The translations under genes were made by a program, and so were the position numbers. DNA of 38,964 bases from Escherichia phage HK542. Of the stretch, positions 13,063 to 38,577 are shown piece by piece. The stretch lies in the sequence record NC_019769.1; one strand, 5' to 3'. Below the pieces are notes generated by a model. It saw nothing but the letters and a program-made list of their open reading frames with translations. It made no database searches and had not been told where the DNA came from. The number at the start of each line of letters is the position of its first letter. Position 1 is the first letter of the stretch.

Positions 13063-13287
13063 ATGTATACAGTTGGGTTTGGTTGGATCTTCGTCGGTAT
13101 TTTTATTGGGTTAATTCTCTGGTTTTTCATCAACCGCGCCAGCGTCAGAGCGAACAGGCAGGTTGAATTACTTGAGTCTATCGACCAGAAATTATCAAAA
13201 ATAGTAGATCCAAACTTCGAGGCAAATAACAAAGACCAGTCGAAAGAAAACTACCTTGAAGAAGCAAGGAAAAAAGCTGGGCTTTGA
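13063..13287 (+). CDS. Small single-pass membrane protein (moron between K and I)
   Basis: 74 aa; AAGGAG RBS 7 nt upstream; one N-terminal TM helix (VGFGWIFVGIFIGLILWFFI) and a charged C-tail; AT-rich; own terminator. Confidence 0.5.
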   Translation: MYTVGFGWIFVGIFIGLILWFFINRASVRANRQVELLESIDQKLSKIVDPNFEANNKDQSKENYLEEARKKAGL

Positions 13288-18503: not shown

Positions 18504-18737
18504 ATGAAAAGGCTAATTATCTGCATAGCGGGCGCTTTAATGCTGTCTGGTTGCGCTGGTGTACTTGAGAAACAGAAACCGATTTGCAGCGGCACGGCAT
18601 ATATGGGTGGCCATGAGAATACCGTTATGATTTACGCCGTTCGAAAGCAAAACAACCAGACGCAATACCGGGCCGGATATCCCTTTAACTGGCGCTGGGT
18701 AAGTGCGAACACATTCACAAGCACGACATGTAAATAA
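18504..18737 (+). CDS. Small lipoprotein (moron)
   Basis: 77 aa; signal peptide with lipobox LSGC; AT-rich upstream leader and downstream terminator. Confidence 0.6.
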   Translation: MKRLIICIAGALMLSGCAGVLEKQKPICSGTAYMGGHENTVMIYAVRKQNNQTQYRAGYPFNWRWVSANTFTSTTCK

Positions 18738-22540: not shown

Positions 22541-22854
22541 TTCTTCCCACTCCGCAACATCGCATTCAGATATTTGTTGTCATTAACAGAACCGAAACTA
22601 TTTCTCTTAAGCAATTCCTCTCTCGATGGCATTGGCTTTACGCGTTGGCGAATAATCATTTCTGCCGGAAGAATGCCGGGATTGTATGCAAGTCCTCTCA
22701 TAGTAAATTCCTCAGTCATTACTGATAGCGCCATAGCGTGAGCGGTAATTACGCAGGCGCGGGTCGATATATTCAGGGAAGTGGGTATATGTGGCTTTGC
22801 GGAATGGTCGGATTGATGTCTGGTAAATTCGCTCGCGTTCTTCTTTCTCTGCAA
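22537..22854 (-). CDS. Hypothetical early protein (start uncertain)
   Basis: ORF overlaps the upstream gene by 143 nt; a shorter product from an internal ATG with GAGG RBS is more plausible. Confidence 0.35.
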
Positions 22855-23008
22855 GCCATATACAGTGGCGAAATTCCTTTTCCTCTTTCGTTTCCTGCGG
22901 TAGAGACATTATTCGATCGTAGTTTTTTCTGAATTTATCCAGCACCTCCGATACGGAATTGCCGGAACAGCGGCGCGGGTCATCCGCGCCATATAGAGGC
23001 GCTGGCAT
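22712..23008 (-). CDS. Hypothetical early protein
   Basis: 98 aa with AAGGA RBS 8 nt upstream of the ATG. Confidence 0.45.
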
Positions 23009-24020: not shown

Positions 24021-24109
24021 ATGATTGTTCTCAGAATGGACACGGCCCAAGGAAATAACGCTGATTTAATACTTCAGTCTTTGCCGCATTTAAAAATACG
24101 CGAACACCT

Positions 24110-24280
24110 TCACGATCTCCCTTCTGGCGATACATTAACGCCTGCTGCGTGTACATGCGTCTCTGTAACTTGCTCTCCTTCACTGTGGTTGCAAGTGACA
24201 TGAATATCTCCTTCGTTACCGATTAAATCTTTCATCTGACGAATAAATTCTTCGTCTGAACAGTTATCTGTAAAACTCAT
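24110..24280 (-). CDS. Hypothetical small protein in kil position
   Basis: 56 aa from an ATG in ATGA overlap with the cIII stop; lies between cIII and erf. Confidence 0.4.
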   Translation of the reverse strand: MSFTDNCSDEEFIRQMKDLIGNEGDIHVTCNHSEGEQVTETHVHAAGVNVSPEGRS

Positions 24281-24447
24281 GGACGGCCTTGTTGTTTCAA
24301 AATATCCCAAAGCTTTTCGAGCAAACTTTTCATTCTTGGTTGTTTAAAGTCTGCTCCGGTTAAAATATTTTTTCGTGAATGCTGTACCGATAAAATCGGG
24401 TTGAAAGGGCGAACCGATGCCGCCCCTGCAATAGCGAACTGTTGCAT
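24277..24447 (-). CDS. cIII: cIII-like protease inhibitor
   Basis: 56 aa from ATG 24447 with AAGGAG RBS; MQQFAIAG...LWDILKQQGRP resembles lambda cIII (MQYAIAG...LIDILNQPG). Confidence 0.7.
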   Translation of the reverse strand: MQQFAIAGAASVRPFNPILSVQHSRKNILTGADFKQPRMKSLLEKLWDILKQQGRP

Positions 24448-24671
24448 AGGATGCTCCTTCTGTTTGATTGCATAACGAAAACGCCTCGAATGAAGCGTTA
24501 TTGGTATGCATATAAAAAGGCCCTCACACTGGAGGGCAAAGAAGATTTCCAATAATCAGAACAAGTCGGCTCCTGTTTAGTTACGAGCGACATTGCTCCG
24601 TGTATTCACTCGTTGGAATGAATACACAGTGCAGTGTTTATTCTGTTTTTTATGGCAAAAATAAAGGCCGA

Positions 24672-25295
24672 CTATGCGGCTTCGGAAGGAAGTCCAATCA
24701 TCTTATTCAAATCTTCTACCCGTAAAGCAGGAAGTGCTGTACTTGCTTTATCTGCTTCTTTTGGTAGCAATTCTTTGCTTTCAGGCCAAACTTCAATAAG
24801 TCGCTTAACTGTTGTGACTGAGTTCAAAGCAGCCCATACATTTGATTCGATATCCTTTTTCTTGGCTTCAAGTTTTTGTTGCAATGCGCAGATTTCATCA
24901 AACCTTTTTGTTATTTCGTGTTCTGCGTCAAACATGCATTTATCTTTGGTCGGAGTAGGGAGCAATATATCTTCGCCGTTGCCGTCTTTCCCATATGAAA
25001 GCCATCCAACCCTTCTGCCAGATACAGTCAGATAAATTGAAGTAGAACGAACATCGTATGAGTAAAATGAACATCCCATCTTTCCAAGTTCTTCACTTAT
25101 AGCTACCAACTTGGATGATAACTGATCCACTTCCTCAGTTTTCTTTTTACCGCAAAACGCAATAACTCTGGCGTCAAGTGCAAGCTGGTTCTTTAACTTT
25201 GTTACTTCTTCAAGTTCAGTGAAAACCCCAGACTTAATTAAAGCGTTACGAGCGATTTCCTCTTTCATTCTCGTAGTTAAGCGGATTGATGACAT
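24672..25295 (-). CDS. Hypothetical 207-aa protein (AT-rich, adjacent to N)
   Basis: ATG 25295 with GAGGAA RBS; no TM segment; charged coiled-coil-like stretches; lower GC than neighbours. Confidence 0.55.
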   Translation of the reverse strand: MSSIRLTTRMKEEIARNALIKSGVFTELEEVTKLKNQLALDARVIAFCGKKKTEEVDQLSSKLVAISEELGKMGCSFYSYDVRSTSIYLTVSGRRVGWLSYGKDGNGEDILLPTPTKDKCMFDAEHEITKRFDEICALQQKLEAKKKDIESNVWAALNSVTTVKRLIEVWPESKELLPKEADKASTALPALRVEDLNKMIGLPSEAA

Positions 25296-25306
25296 ATTAA
25301 TTCCTC

Positions 25307-25633
25307 TCAAATAAGTGGTTTGCTGCCTAATTTCATTTTCTGGCGACCAACACAAGTCACACCCATTTCACTGCGTGGCTTGCTGTACCATGTGCGCTGA
25401 TTCTTGCGCTCAATACGTTGCAGGTTGCTTTCAATCTGTTCGTGGTATTCAGCCAGCACCGTAAGGTCTATCGGATTCAGTGCGCTGTCTACTCGTGATT
25501 TCGGTTTGCGATTCAGCGAGAGAATAGGGCGGTTAACTGGTTTTGCGCTTACCCCAACCAACAGGGGATTTGCTGCTTTCCATTGAGCCTGTTTCTCTGC
25601 GCGACGTTCGCGGCGGCGTGTTTGTGCATCCAT
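25307..25633 (-). CDS. N: Antitermination protein N
   Basis: 108 aa from ATG 25633 with AGGAG RBS; from memory, near-identical to lambda N including the Arg-rich motif MDAQTRRRERRAEKQAQWKAAN. Confidence 0.92.
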   Translation of the reverse strand: MDAQTRRRERRAEKQAQWKAANPLLVGVSAKPVNRPILSLNRKPKSRVDSALNPIDLTVLAEYHEQIESNLQRIERKNQRTWYSKPRSEMGVTCVGRQKMKLGSKPLI

Positions 25634-25743
25634 CTGGATTCTCCTGTCAGTTAGCTTTGAGTAACGCGCCGTGATGCTTATCTCCACGGTTGCTGTCTTG
25701 CAGCTGCATTTCGCGCTACTCAAAGCCTTCTGCTTTGAATGCT

Positions 25744-25774
25744 GCCCTTCTTCAGGGCTTAATTTTTAAGAGCA
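25744..25774 (-). promoter_or_regulatory. nutL (boxA and boxB)
   Basis: Minus strand reads TGCTCTTAAAAATTAA then GCCCTGAAGAAGGGC hairpin, upstream of N. Confidence 0.75.
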
Positions 25775-25812
25775 TCACCTTCAATGGTGGTCAGTGCGTC
25801 CTGCTGATGTGC

Positions 25813-25877
25813 TTAGTATCACCGCCAGTGGTATTTATGTCAACACCGCCAGAGATAATTTATCACCGCAGATGGTT
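25813..25877 (-). promoter_or_regulatory. OL1-OL2-OL3 operators with PL promoter
   Basis: 17-mers tatcaccgccagtggta, caacaccgccagagata and tatcaccgcagatggtt match the lambda OL sites as remembered; TTGACA and GATACT on the minus strand overlap OL2/OL1. Confidence 0.85.
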
Positions 25878-26032
25878 ATCTGTATGTTTTTTATATAGAT
25901 TTATTTTTTGCAGGGTTGTGTGGATTGGGAAGGTGATCGAGAGATCTGAATTGCGATGTTTAGTGAGTTGTATCTATTAATTTCCAAATAAATACAATTG
26001 GTTATGTGTTCTTGGGTGAGGGGGATCGTGAG

Positions 26033-26060
26033 GCAAAGAAAACCCGGCGCTGAGGCCGGG
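26033..26060 (-). terminator. tIMM-like intrinsic terminator closing the cI operon
   Basis: cccggc-gctgag-gccggg hairpin with a downstream T-run on the minus strand, 8 nt past the stop at 26069. Confidence 0.7.
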
Positions 26061-26068
26061 TTAATGCG

Positions 26069-26689
26069 TTAATGCTGGGGAGTGATTTTTTTGTTGTCTG
26101 TTGGCTGGGTATTTTGTGGCGGCGCTTGCAAAGTGGAAGGCTGTTGCAAAGGTGCGTGGTCTGACTTTAAAGCTGATACCAGCCCGGGAATCGCAACTAT
26201 TACAGCGATAATGACACTAAAAATGGCTAATCGTATAGAAATACCCGACTGAACACCACTAATTGCGGTATTAACCCCTGTTATTTGTCCTTGAATTCCT
26301 TCGAATCTCCCATTAATTGCTTTTATATCGCCAGCAGCGCTATCCATCTTTCCATCGATCTTGGACGATAGAGAGTTTATGGCTGCATTAAGTGATGCAA
26401 ATTGGACATTAACGCTTTCACGAGATAGAGCCATGTCAGCCCTAATGGAAGAAGCAATAGACTCCATCTCTGCTTTATTAGCAGCTAAGCGAGCATCAAG
26501 TTCCTCTCTGCTGATCGTTCCCACTTCTTCCTCCGTTTGTGGCGGTTTTATGTAATTATTTTGCACCTTGGTGGGAGAATTATCAAATTCAGCCTCAAAA
26601 TAGGAACCGCCAACAACCTTCAACCTCCGGCTTTCAGATATGTTGGTGTCTTGCTTTCCATGATTATTTAAATTGCTGTCGTCACTCAT
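26069..26689 (-). CDS. Rex-position protein B: coiled-coil-like protein with C-terminal TM anchor
   Basis: 206 aa; ATGA overlap with upstream gene; Ala/Ser/Ile-rich heptad-like region then one TM helix (ISIRLAIFSVIIAVIVAIPGLVSAL) and a Pro/Gln-rich tail. Confidence 0.6.
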   Translation of the reverse strand: MSDDSNLNNHGKQDTNISESRRLKVVGGSYFEAEFDNSPTKVQNNYIKPPQTEEEVGTISREELDARLAANKAEMESIASSIRADMALSRESVNVQFASLNAAINSLSSKIDGKMDSAAGDIKAINGRFEGIQGQITGVNTAISGVQSGISIRLAIFSVIIAVIVAIPGLVSALKSDHAPLQQPSTLQAPPQNTQPTDNKKITPQH

Positions 26690-27120
26690 AATAGCTCTAC
26701 GGTGAAAAATGATTCATTTTTATGAAGTTCATTTTTAGGGTCTTCATTATCCTGCAATATCCCTATAACACTATACAGCCCTTTAGCTGGGACCCTAATT
26801 TCTTTCAATGTTACTATTACCTGTCCGCCAACCCCTGTTTCAAAATGGCTATCTTTCGTATCGATGAAAAGTGAAACTGATTCCGAAGAGCCGTCAGGGA
26901 ATTGAATTTCCTCACCTTTTTTTATAATTAGGTGCGCGGGGATTACCATAATACCCAAATTATATCTTGAATTTGGTTTCAACCCGATCATACCAACCCT
27001 GAAATCAATTGATAGCCGCGCAGGAAATTCATTGCATGTAAAATTAAGCGTCGGTTGGTTGGGTTCTTCGCTGCTATCAAATGGGGTTATAAAAGATATT
27101 CTTTCTAAATTAAGTGCCAT
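26686..27120 (-). CDS. Rex-position protein A: soluble 144-aa protein
   Basis: ATG 27120 with AGGAG RBS 7 nt upstream; the track start at 27174 is a GTG overlapping the cI stop; no TM segment; AT-rich. Confidence 0.6.
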   Translation of the reverse strand: MALNLERISFITPFDSSEEPNQPTLNFTCNEFPARLSIDFRVGMIGLKPNSRYNLGIMVIPAHLIIKKGEEIQFPDGSSESVSLFIDTKDSHFETGVGGQVIVTLKEIRVPAKGLYSVIGILQDNEDPKNELHKNESFFTVELL

Positions 27121-27170
27121 AAATTCTCCTGCATCGCTGTATGCTCTACGAGCATCTCGGCGACTTATCA

Positions 27171-27887
<717 letters not shown>

Positions 27888-36209: not shown

Positions 36210-37667
36210 ATGGAAGTCTCTATCAATGGCGTACCGTATGTACCAGCTGGTGCCGTATTCTCCCGGATTGGGATTGCAATAACGACGCACCAACGCGCCG
36301 ACGTTCTTAAACGAGCGCTCGAACAGCACATGAAACATCTTCCCGCCGGCGCGCTGGTGGTTGTTATCGATGATGGTTCAAAACCTGCAACGGAAGTTAC
36401 CGACGGCGTGCAGCTGCTTCGCAATGAAACATCACTCGGCATTGTTGCTTCGAAGAACGCCAGCCTGTCTGCCCTGATGGATGCCGGGTGCGAGCACCTG
36501 TTTTTATGGGATGACGACGCCTGGCCTATCGCCGACAACTGGCACCTGCCGTATATCGAATCTCCAGAGCCGCACCTGGCTTATCAGTTTCTCGATCTGG
36601 CTGGCCCGCGAAAGATTAACGATATGACCGTTCTGTACCGGGATGATAAGCATATTGCTTACACTGGGCAGCGCGGAGTGATGTTGTACTACCACCGCAG
36701 CGCCATCGAGAAGGTGGGCGGGTTCGATCCGGTGTATGGCCGGGGCATGTATGAGCATCCTGATCTGGCGCTTCGGATTTATAACGCTGGCTTAACGTCC
36801 TGGGCGTTTGCTGATGTGGTTGGCTCTGAAAAGCTGATTCATTCGATGGATGAATACGAAGAAGGCGCGCGCAGTATACCGAGGCCAGAACGTGAAGCGC
36901 TCGATAAAAAGAACGCTGTGATTTACGGGCAGCGCAGGGATTCAGGATATACAGGCTATGCCGAGTATCGATCTCAGCGTGACGTGGTCATCACTACGTT
37001 ACTAACCAGCCAGCCAGACCCGCAGCGCGGTACGAAAATGGCCGCCTCACCTGACATGCTGGCTAAATGGGCCTCATCGCTCCGGAATTGTGGCCGTATC
37101 GCGCTGGTGGATGAACTACAGACGGCACCGGCAGACGTTGAGCTGTACCGCGTTCCTGACGTGAAGATGAATGTCTACTTCCGGCGCTGGCTGCATATCT
37201 GGCAGCACCTGCGCGATCACCCTGAATATCGGTTCGTCTGGTGTACCGATGGTACCGACGTCGAAATGCTTCGCGCGCCGTGGGAAGAAATGCAGCCCGG
37301 GACTGTTTACGTCGGTTCTGAACCGAAGACCTACGCCGACACCTGGGCGAAACAGAATCATCCTGAGCGTATCTATCAGGAATTCATTGAAGCGCACCGC
37401 AACGATGTGATGCTTAACGCTGGTCTGCTGGGTGGCAGCCGCGCTGATGTAATGGCGTTCGCTCACGGCATCATCCGTCTTTACTACCGGATCGAGAGTT
37501 ATCGTTTCTGGAAGAAAGAACAGGCTGGCGCCGCGGTGGGTGACATGCTGGCATTCGGTATTGTCGCGCAGTCATTCGCTGACAGACTGGTCACCGGCCC
37601 TCTGGTACATACCGTTTTCAAAACTGATGGTATCGGTAAGGAGGCCGCATGGTGGAAACACAAGTGA
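36210..37667 (+). CDS. Putative two-domain glycosyltransferase (N-terminal GT2-like GT-A domain)
   Basis: 485 aa; GT2 hallmarks IGIAITTHQR, VVVIDDGS, WDDDAW (DXD), GGFDP...EHPDLALR; C-terminal half has a second GT-A-like pattern (VVITTLL...VWCTDGTDVEM); no TM segments; GC-rich. Confidence 0.7.
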   Translation: MEVSINGVPYVPAGAVFSRIGIAITTHQRADVLKRALEQHMKHLPAGALVVVIDDGSKPATEVTDGVQLLRNETSLGIVASKNASLSALMDAGCEHLFLWDDDAWPIADNWHLPYIESPEPHLAYQFLDLAGPRKINDMTVLYRDDKHIAYTGQRGVMLYYHRSAIEKVGGFDPVYGRGMYEHPDLALRIYNAGLTSWAFADVVGSEKLIHSMDEYEEGARSIPRPEREALDKKNAVIYGQRRDSGYTGYAEYRSQRDVVITTLLTSQPDPQRGTKMAASPDMLAKWASSLRNCGRIALVDELQTAPADVELYRVPDVKMNVYFRRWLHIWQHLRDHPEYRFVWCTDGTDVEMLRAPWEEMQPGTVYVGSEPKTYADTWAKQNHPERIYQEFIEAHRNDVMLNAGLLGGSRADVMAFAHGIIRLYYRIESYRFWKKEQAGAAVGDMLAFGIVAQSFADRLVTGPLVHTVFKTDGIGKEAAWWKHK

Positions 37668-38239
37668 AGTTTGTTGTGGTTGGCCATCACTCTCGCATAG
37701 GTTATGCGCAACGACTTGCCGCGATGCTGGATGCTCATCTGCTTATTGATGAAGGTAACCGCGGCGCTAACTGGAATCATCGTCGCGCTATCGAATGGGC
37801 TGCTGAGCAACCTTGCCGGGTAGTAGTGTTGGAAGACGACGCGCTTCCTGTGCAGGGCTTCACCGATAAGGTAACTGACTGGCTGGTGCGCTTCCCTGAC
37901 GACATGCTGAGCTTTTATCTCGGTACTGGCCGACCGCCGCAGTATCAGAAAGAGATTGCCGGAATGCTGGTGGATGCGGATCGCGTCTGTGGTGACCACA
38001 TCGTATTAAGCAAACTGATTCACGGCGTATGTTACAGCCCTCCTCAGGGCAGGCTGGGGCGCATGCTCAGCACCTGGAATAAAACGCTGGCAGCTGATTA
38101 CGCCGTCGGTGAGGCATTCGGTGGCCGGGTGATTTATCCGTGTTACTCGCTGGTGGATCACGCCGACATGCCGACAGTTGAGCGTCACCCTGACAACGAG
38201 CCGAGGACGGAACGCCGCCGCGCATGGAGACTGGCATGA
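37649..38239 (+). CDS. Putative nucleotide-sugar transferase-like protein
   Basis: 196 aa with AAGGAGG RBS, overlapping the upstream gene; FVVVGHH and VVVLEDDA resemble a GT-A strand plus DXD motif; weak evidence. Confidence 0.4.
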   Translation: MVETQVKFVVVGHHSRIGYAQRLAAMLDAHLLIDEGNRGANWNHRRAIEWAAEQPCRVVVLEDDALPVQGFTDKVTDWLVRFPDDMLSFYLGTGRPPQYQKEIAGMLVDADRVCGDHIVLSKLIHGVCYSPPQGRLGRMLSTWNKTLAADYAVGEAFGGRVIYPCYSLVDHADMPTVERHPDNEPRTERRRAWRLA

Positions 38240-38577
38240 ACAAAGAGCCCCGCGTATATGGCAGCCGATGGGATAAAGCCCGTCTGCGTTTCCTGCAGCA
38301 GCACCCACTATGTGTGATGTGCGAGCAGCAGGGGCGCATAACCCCAGCAACGGTGGTTGACCATATCGTGCCCCACAAACTGAAAGATGCGCTTAAGTCA
38401 GGTAACCCACTGGCCATATCGAAAGCACAGCTCCTGTTCTGGAGTAAAGAGAACTGGCAGCCACTGTGCAAAGCGCATCATGACTCAACGAAACAGAGAA
38501 TGGAGAAGAGCGGCACGGTAATAGGCTGTGATGCCAACGGCTACCCGCTCGATCCTGCGTCTCACTGGAGCACGTAA
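38224..38577 (+). CDS. HNH endonuclease (terminase-associated)
   Basis: 117 aa with HNH-type pattern (CVMCEQQG...VDHIVPH...LCKAHHD); alternative ATGA-coupled start at 38236; sits just upstream of terS on the circular map. Confidence 0.85.
   Translation: METGMNKEPRVYGSRWDKARLRFLQQHPLCVMCEQQGRITPATVVDHIVPHKLKDALKSGNPLAISKAQLLFWSKENWQPLCKAHHDSTKQRMEKSGTVIGCDANGYPLDPASHWST

Follow-up and report, generated by a model that had tools for sequence, protein, structure and literature searches.

Escherichia phage HK542 (sequence record NC_019769.1) is a temperate siphovirus of the HK97/HK022 type, and the 38,964-nucleotide stretch analysed here, hereafter the window, is its complete genome, with the small terminase subunit at position 1 and a gp74-type HNH gene (38224-38577) at its other end. 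The first gene behind that of the N antiterminator on the leftward early transcript encodes a protein of 207 residues, HK542c102, deposited in GenBank as a "hypothetical protein". Its identity as the Nmad5 (PF18757) gene of an HK542-type phage with lambda immunity is near certain. We propose, with a probability of roughly 0.35, that Nmad5 acts as a non-catalytic early binding protein that modulates either a conserved host DNA-processing activity or the DNA undergoing replication and recombination. This reading derives from the lack of a catalytic signature, the immediate-early position, the location in the slot otherwise occupied by ral, the moron-like character of the gene and the existence of a toxic homologue with defence-system genetics.

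The window protein matches Pfam family PF18757 ("Nucleotide modification associated domain 5") with an E-value of 3.2e-72 and 243.3 bits against a cutoff of 27, residues 4-203 of 207 aligning with positions 1-206 of the 206-position model. It also matches PHROG 1965 (E = 4.7e-83), and PGAP/RefSeq names the product of close relatives "Nmad5 family putative nucleotide modification protein". An earlier sequence-only reading of the window, which had taken the product to lack a recognisable family, was therefore wrong on this point; the remote-homology search that it had suggested identified the protein as Nmad5, without thereby assigning an activity. Both the window sequence and the family are already in public databases, and nothing is new at that level. 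A Pfam scan at E ≤ 1 returned Nmad5 and three sub-threshold matches only, with no match to Ral (PF11058). An NCBIfam scan of the protein gave no match, and none of the 5027 defence protein models of PADLOC-DB was matched at E ≤ 1. Iyer et al. 2013 is said to be the founding paper of the family, whose name is reportedly based on genomic association with nucleotide- or DNA-modifying enzymes. Base-modification activity has been demonstrated for no Nmad5 member in the literature found.

Among 1.84 billion representative proteins, a profile search revealed 2290 clusters (50% identity) at E ≤ 0.001, 700 of them at E ≤ 1e-10. RefSeq annotates Nmad5 in 211 of 5426 complete E. coli genomes (3.9%), nearly always on the chromosome, and many Shiga-toxin phages carry it. 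This very widespread family was named from the neighbourhood of a minority of its members, and membership names the protein without explaining its role. Nearly all of the best 150 of the 2290 clusters comprise proteins of ~190-230 residues matched over their full length, together with a few shorter, apparently truncated entries. The representatives and homologues examined are nearly all of about 185-235 residues, each with PF18757 alone, and no domain fusion occurs among the best 150 cluster representatives or among 55 profile matches with architectures.

In 142 members with an average identity of 30%, the near-invariant positions (window numbering) are I14, A18, R43, G48-G49, G93, T162, L166, W170-P171-E172, L176, P178, L196-N197 and G201-L202-P203, all of which the window protein keeps except G48. 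No catalytic constellation of Asp, Glu, His, Lys or Cys was identified among the conserved positions of these members, and the conservation appears to be of a structural or binding type, not enzymatic. The properties of an Ocr/ArdA-type DNA mimic are likewise not observed, the isoelectric point (pI) being 6.65 for the window protein and 7.6 (median) for the family, with a median net charge of +1 and no fold match; since the family pI is near neutral, Nmad5 proteins are, by composition, not DNA mimics. With a grand average of hydropathy (GRAVY) of -0.31 the window protein looks soluble and displays long predicted helices, so that its earlier description as a soluble protein with coiled-coil-like segments was a fair one. 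It has no membrane or hydrophobic segment and in this is not SieB-like.

The AlphaFold2 (AF2) model, built from a 26-sequence alignment, has a mean predicted local distance difference test (pLDDT) of 84.7 and a predicted template modelling score (pTM) of 0.69. It comprises three long N-terminal helices, a β-hairpin region, a 32-residue helix (127-158) and short C-terminal helices. Structural similarity search of this model against the PDB using Foldseek gave a best E-value not below 0.58, and PDB sequence and profile searches were empty. Against predicted viral structures (BFVD) the only significant matches were other phage Nmad5 proteins or unnamed phage proteins (probability 1.0; template modelling score up to 0.75), including those of eiAU, C130_2 and Vibrio phages. 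The structure prediction called for by the sequence-only reading thus yielded a confident model, of a predicted fold that appears to have no solved relative and matches only phage Nmad5 proteins.

Early expression and genomic company

The start codon of Nmad5 lies 11 nt past the TGA stop of N, and on the minus strand the earliest terminator-like hairpins come after Nmad5, ahead of the cIII-like gene. Because it is upstream of the first predicted intrinsic terminators, Nmad5 would make up, together with N, the immediate-early stretch of the pL transcript that needs no N protein, although Rho-dependent termination is possible. Its product should appear within the first minutes after infection or induction, with no need for N antitermination. 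A promoter scan revealed no sigma-70-like site between pL and the Nmad5 open reading frame (ORF). Since pL is repressed in lysogens, Nmad5 should be silent in the repressed lysogen. The place directly after N had been recognised from the sequence alone, and the argument built on it, immediate expression from a ral-type slot, is sound and stronger than the letters alone could show, with the gene ahead of the first predicted terminators and ral adjacent to it in relatives.

From the same position the sequence-only reading had put forward a candidate anti-restriction, anti-defence or exclusion factor. An anti-defence or host-modulating role is plausible by position; no computed result for the window Nmad5 shows any anti-restriction or anti-defence activity. 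An exclusion role, by contrast, is unlikely. A factor of the SieB/Rex type, guarding the lysogen by superinfection exclusion or abortive infection, would fit the occupation of the region of lambda/P22 sieB, the low GC content, the moron-like distribution and the presence in prophages of 3.9% of complete E. coli genomes. However, the expected silence in the lysogen, the lack of any match to the 5027 defence models, the absence of a membrane segment and the abundance of the family in strictly virulent phages (Dhillonvirus, Yuavirus, N4-like) make this specific form of exclusion highly improbable.

Close relatives were sampled as 80 viral contigs in which the gene is 94-99% identical; a separate scan of genome contigs yielded only 9 loci in Enterobacterales, which do not enter these counts. 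In these, Nmad5 is found directly behind at least five different N alleles, four of which match Pfam N_peptide, and ral (PF11058, E = 2e-48) lies directly upstream of it in 9 of 69 close loci. The gene downstream is highly variable and may be kil-like, lambda cIII or one of several unknowns. In Stx2a-converting phages an insertion sequence (IS) element of the IS3 family splits Nmad5 near codon 33, an interruption which means that the gene is dispensable for Stx2a prophages. The sister phage ECP1 displays the same Erf/SSB/Abc2 block (SSB, single-stranded DNA-binding protein) and N-cIII layout; its slot holds an "anti-restriction protein" (Ral-like), and no Nmad5 was found in ECP1 by profile search. 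Because of the varied N and ral genes upstream, the variable gene downstream, the IS disruption and the absence from ECP1, Nmad5 appears to be an optional, horizontally mobile single-gene cassette of the N-to-cIII accessory slot.

Several N alleles upstream of Nmad5 (L002-L081) are chimeric and have only their last ~25 residues (YSKPRSEMGVTCVGRQKMKLGSKPLI) in common with lambda N. As these chimeras share the C-terminal end alone, a recombination junction lies inside N, and the N tail travels with the Nmad5 cassette.

In distant relatives Nmad5 is located in the nin region (Salmonella phage SPN3UB), after the helicase-primase (Edwardsiella phage eiAU), between ThyX and primase (an N4-like Ithacavirus), beside AAA_24 and MazG (another N4-like contig), beside a Tad2-like gene (one contig) or as the first gene after the repressor (a Serratia prophage). 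Two prophages encode Dam and C5 methylases, or MT-A70, downstream of it, and in Yuavirus AN14 it lies between aGPT-Pplase clade 1 and dUMP hydroxymethylase. In three unrelated phage groups (Dhillonvirus, Vibrio phage P23 and VchM-138) it forms an isolated opposite-strand insert in structural modules. A second viral-contig scan provided a neighbourhood sample of 24 clusters (<60% identity; three genes on each side, 142 neighbours), in which, on crude ORF calls and without a background control, the commonest neighbour Pfams were HTH_3 (6), Peptidase_S24 and PDDEXK_1 (4 each), followed by DUF2800, Enc34 SSB, DNA_pol_A and AAA_24 (3 each) and VapE (2). No neighbour family was kept across the 24 clusters as a conserved partner, and the listed families of the 142 neighbours included no methylase or aGPT-Pplase. 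The commonest company of Nmad5 is immunity-region genes, with CI-type repressors recurring, and replication/recombination genes. Since no methylase or aGPT-Pplase occurs in the families listed for these neighbours, the link to modification genes behind the family name applies to a minority of members.

An accessory role in DNA or nucleotide modification would have Nmad5 recruit, scaffold or regulate base-modifying enzymes on new phage DNA. The candidate enzymes are those of hypermodification in M6-like phages, DNA methyltransferases in temperate phages and possibly, in the manner of Ral, host methylases. Besides the Pfam and PGAP name, the cassette locations in M6-like phages and AN14 favour this role, Nmad5 being listed in the SN1/M6 modification cassette (PMC9476957). 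The prophage orders Nmad5-DUF1281_C-Dam-DNA_methylase (L174) and DUF4406-Nmad5-x-MT-A70 (L177) point in the same direction, as do an MT-A70 gene further along in L088 and neighbours from nucleotide metabolism (MazG, NUDIX, ThyX). Ral, which shares the slot, acts by changing host methylation.

The window itself, however, offers no such partner. No hydroxymethylase, kinase, aGPT-Pplase or DNA methyltransferase was identified among the window ORFs scanned, and the modification-enzyme neighbourhood associated with the family name is thus absent from this genome, a contextual feature that does not negate Nmad5 membership. The sole candidate modifying enzymes are a pair of glycosyltransferases between the lysis genes and the HNH/terminase genes, matched in only 17 phage records (ECP1, mEp390, ENT39118 and others), and none of the Nmad5-bearing lambdoids found by the sequence searches is among these 17. 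ECP1 and mEp390 carry the pair and, by profile search, lack Nmad5; the pair, travelling independently, was rejected as its modification partner. Taken with the score of 0 in 142 for methylase or aGPT neighbours and the lack of conserved catalytic residues, and with the fact that many carriers are lambdoid phages, which are not known to hypermodify DNA, this makes a modification role rather unlikely.

Nmad5 could alternatively be an accessory of replication or recombination that works at forks or DNA ends, organising or mediating the action of phage SSB/annealing proteins, exonucleases or polymerases, and that is not involved in host conflict. Replication/recombination families dominate its neighbourhoods, it is found inside AAA_24-DUF2800-SSB-PolA modules (L111, L152, L173) and beside AAA_24 in L175, and the ThyX/primase and helicase-primase flanks of the N4-like phage and eiAU are of the same kind; in the window it shares the leftward operon with the Erf, SSB-like and Abc2 genes. 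In lambdoid phages, however, terminators and cIII separate Nmad5 from the recombination block and the downstream neighbour varies freely. The isolated opposite-strand inserts in structural modules, ECP1 with the same Erf/Abc2 module and no Nmad5, and the IS disruption in Stx2a phages also speak against such a role, which we likewise regard as rather unlikely.

Proposed role

Under the proposal favoured here, Nmad5 would be a stand-alone, mostly helical, non-enzyme binding protein. Its conserved face, comprising R43, the GG turn, the T-x-K-R-L-x-E-x-W-P-E-x-x-E-L-x-P motif and the invariant C-terminal L-N-x-x-I-G-L-P tail, would bind a target conserved across proteobacterial hosts, because the motif is kept across phages of many host genera. 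The target would most likely be a DNA-processing enzyme, or else replication/recombination DNA itself, and binding would modulate the handling of incoming and replicating phage DNA, following the logic of Ral, Gam and Abc2 as early, non-catalytic modulators. On this reading Nmad5 is no dedicated inhibitor of a single defence protein.

The homologue with defence-system genetics is that of Dhillonvirus, whose Tmn-escape mutants carry K216E or K296E in Nmad5 (Yamashita et al. 2025, PMC11846954). Reversion restores Tmn sensitivity, and the gene resisted cloning, apparently through toxicity (PMC11846954). As evidence on the role of Nmad5 these data are ambiguous. In a 2026 preprint in which Nmad5 is not mentioned (PMC13001434), the Tmn trigger of T2 is shown to be RIIB, a replisome-associated protein made early; this is at least compatible with Nmad5 as an early DNA-metabolism protein. 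The literature search found no other experimental work on the Nmad5 family beyond PMC11846954 and no functional study of the HK542/HK244/mEp235 gene, and the OLD preprint uses HK542 solely as an OLD-sensitive phage. The "NMAD" domain of a validated defence system in the DefensePredictor paper is, according to its supplement, Nmad2 (PF18753) and not Nmad5, and was set aside as irrelevant.

Several points weigh against the proposed role. The curated family name points to nucleotide modification, and in M6-like Pseudomonas phages the gene lies within the thymidine-hypermodification cassette. The neighbourhood counts come from crude ORF calls on 24 clusters and are uncontrolled. A Dhillonvirus Nmad5 deletion mutant is still Tmn-sensitive (PMC11846954), and therefore the wild-type protein is neither the sole Tmn trigger nor a Tmn inhibitor. 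Model confidence is low (pLDDT 46-55) for the final 20 residues, which are highly conserved. The window allele carries Cys at position 48 (codon at ~25154-25152), in the GG turn that links helices 2 and 3, where Gly is present in 97% of the 142 diverse members and in 75 of 76 close relatives; HK244 and HK542 share the Cys, and this allele may be a weakened or altered copy owing to G48C. Binding to any partner is itself a proposal, drawn from sequence and model.

A further reading, in which Nmad5 would be a first-in-class immediate-early effector of unsolved fold whose invariant WPE...LN..IGLP surface binds a host DNA-processing or immune-sensing component kept across Proteobacteria, is put forward only tentatively. 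If true, a conserved host target would explain the spread of the family through thousands of phage lineages, the cloning toxicity and a Tmn outcome altered by one charge change in a conserved basic dyad, and HK542, with lambda immunity and an E. coli K-12 host, would be the simplest system for finding that target. With Nmad5 immediate-early in a ral-type slot, no co-occurring modification enzymes and a phage that grows on E. coli K-12, the window lends itself to testing whether the name "nucleotide modification" misleads and whether the protein has a host-modulating or counter-defence role.

Local anatomy and other genes of the window

The coordinates of the features are collected in Table 1. 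Over its immunity region the window shows 100% identity to the records deposited for that region of HK542 and HK244, the DNA of the Nmad5 ORF is 100% identical to that of HK542, and the HK244 protein is 100% identical over all 207 residues. The ORF of 207 codons, its own ribosome-binding site and its AT-richness, all read earlier from the letters alone, are borne out; its strand, which had not been given, is minus. The GC content is 40.1% (33.7% at third codon positions) against a window mean of 50.9%, placing the ORF at the 0.8th percentile of 624-nt windows. In 62 distinct alleles from 76 closely related loci the ratio of nonsynonymous to synonymous polymorphism (pN/pS) is 0.33, indicating purifying selection. 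Since this value and the Pfam E-value of 3e-72 are not those expected by chance, the ORF is, judged by its sequence, a real gene. Homologues start at the same MSSIRLT, and an upstream in-frame TTG start at 25355 (227 residues) was rejected, as it overlaps N, lacks a ribosome-binding site and disagrees with the start of the homologues. The HK542 annotation also lists, as hypothetical protein c101, an antisense ORF of 133 codons on the plus strand (24634-25035), which matches no PHROG and is probably an artefact.

Table 1. Positions of the Nmad5 gene, its signals and other features; positions are those of the window except where a contig is named.
Feature	Position	Strand	Details
Nmad5-family gene, 207 aa	24672..25295	minus	ATG at 25295, TAG stop 24674-24672
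Shine-Dalgarno GAGG	25303..25306	minus	7 nt before ATG; read from sequence
N antiterminator gene, lambda allele, 108 aa	25307..25633	minus	translation MDAQTRRRERRAEKQAQWKAANPLL...; annotated N in HK542; TGA stop
nutL boxB GCCCTGAAGAAGGGC	25744..25758	minus	string search; annotated nutL boxB in HK542 EF120458
pL early leftward promoter, TTGACA-17-GATACT	25815..25843	minus	promoter scan; same site annotated pL in HK542 immunity-region record
14-bp perfect hairpin, 3' untranslated region of Nmad5 gene	24598..24629	minus	within RNA fold of 24505-24675
First intrinsic-terminator-like hairpin after pL, GCCCTC-CAGTGT-GAGGGC + T-run	24512..24537	minus	terminator scan; between Nmad5 and cIII-like genes
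Second terminator-like hairpin	24474..24499	minus	terminator scan
cIII-like gene, 56 aa, next downstream	24277..24447	minus	translation resembles lambda CIII (MQ.AIAG...SLLE..W..L.DIL)
Abc2	22712-23008		PF11043, E = 4e-62
Glycosyltransferase, 485 aa	within 36210-38239	plus	PHROG 1579, E = 4e-251; weak Pfam GT2
Glucosyltransferase, 196 aa	within 36210-38239	plus	PHROG 854, E = 7e-72
IS3-split Nmad5	238-2025 of L179 (Stx2_06E050)		transposase ORFs of 108 aa and 296 aa

The 3' region of the Nmad5 gene is highly structured, the RNA fold of 24505-24675 (minus strand) having a minimum free energy of -52.6 kcal/mol (z = -4.8 against shuffles). A search of Rfam with 24200-26050 returned a single sub-threshold chance match and none for this region, which might be a processing site or part of a mosaic boundary ("boundary sequence 4" of the HK542 record). 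The cIII-like protein next downstream has no Pfam match and is assigned by resemblance and position. Beyond Nmad5 the leftward operon comprises this gene, two small genes matching "recombinase" PHROGs, Erf, an SSB-like gene, Abc2, an unknown gene of 148 codons and int. The two small ORFs, which overlap at 24031-24310 (minus) between the cIII-like gene and erf, match PHROGs 2123 and 1723. One of them may be the counterpart of HK75 Gp33, reported in a 2026 preprint (10.64898/2026.07.10.737580) to trigger the P2 Old defence and possibly to modulate RecBCD.

At the position of lambda rexA/rexB, between cI and the Timm terminator (26069-27174, minus), two unrelated low-GC genes are found, one of 206 codons (43% GC) with an apparently hydrophobic C-terminal stretch, as read from the sequence, and one of 162 codons (39% GC). 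Their PHROG matches (5820 and 5893) are of unknown function, and neither gene matches a PADLOC model. Since their position implies expression with cI in the lysogen, where they should be made, the pair are candidates for a Rex-like prophage defence module. The tail module contains two accessory genes on the plus strand: one at 13063-13287 (74 aa, 40% GC, hydrophobic start, PHROG 5031 of unknown function) and one at 18504-18737 for a 77-residue Cor superinfection-exclusion lipoprotein (PHROG 1119, E = 2e-37).

Comparison with known systems

The window protein shares with the Nmad5 family an end-to-end profile match, a stand-alone architecture of ~200 residues, the same motifs and the same predicted fold. 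It differs in the Cys that replaces the 97%-conserved Gly48 and in the lack of co-occurring modification enzymes in its genome. The Dhillonvirus proteins (PhiSMS22 CDS6, PhiSMA8 CDS7 and SSL-2009a orf7) belong to the same family, SSL-2009a orf7 matching PF18757 with an E-value of 7e-62, and are 32% identical to the window protein over the C-terminal 100 residues. In contrast, they are longer (254-334 residues) with a divergent middle, and are encoded on the opposite strand in a head-gene module of a virulent phage. In the alignment, K216 of SSL-2009a (254 residues) falls opposite R165 of the window protein, which closes the conserved K164-R165 dyad (K-[KR]) in T-x-K-R-L-x-E-x-W-P-E; the numbering of K216 is carried over to PhiSMA8 by inference from sequence, so that the correspondence with the escape mutation is putative.

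Lambda Ral (PF11058) resembles Nmad5 in occupying the first accessory slot after N and in early expression from pL, and by analogy both would be small, non-enzymatic phage proteins, as proposed here for Nmad5. Ral displays no sequence or fold similarity to Nmad5 and is considerably shorter (66 residues against 207). As the two genes are adjacent in 9 loci and thus co-occur, they are not simple substitutes for each other. Gam of lambda and Abc2 of P22 have no Pfam or fold match to Nmad5, and the window phage already encodes Abc2. What they would have in common with Nmad5 is their kind: early proteins of the leftward operon that bind a conserved host DNA enzyme.

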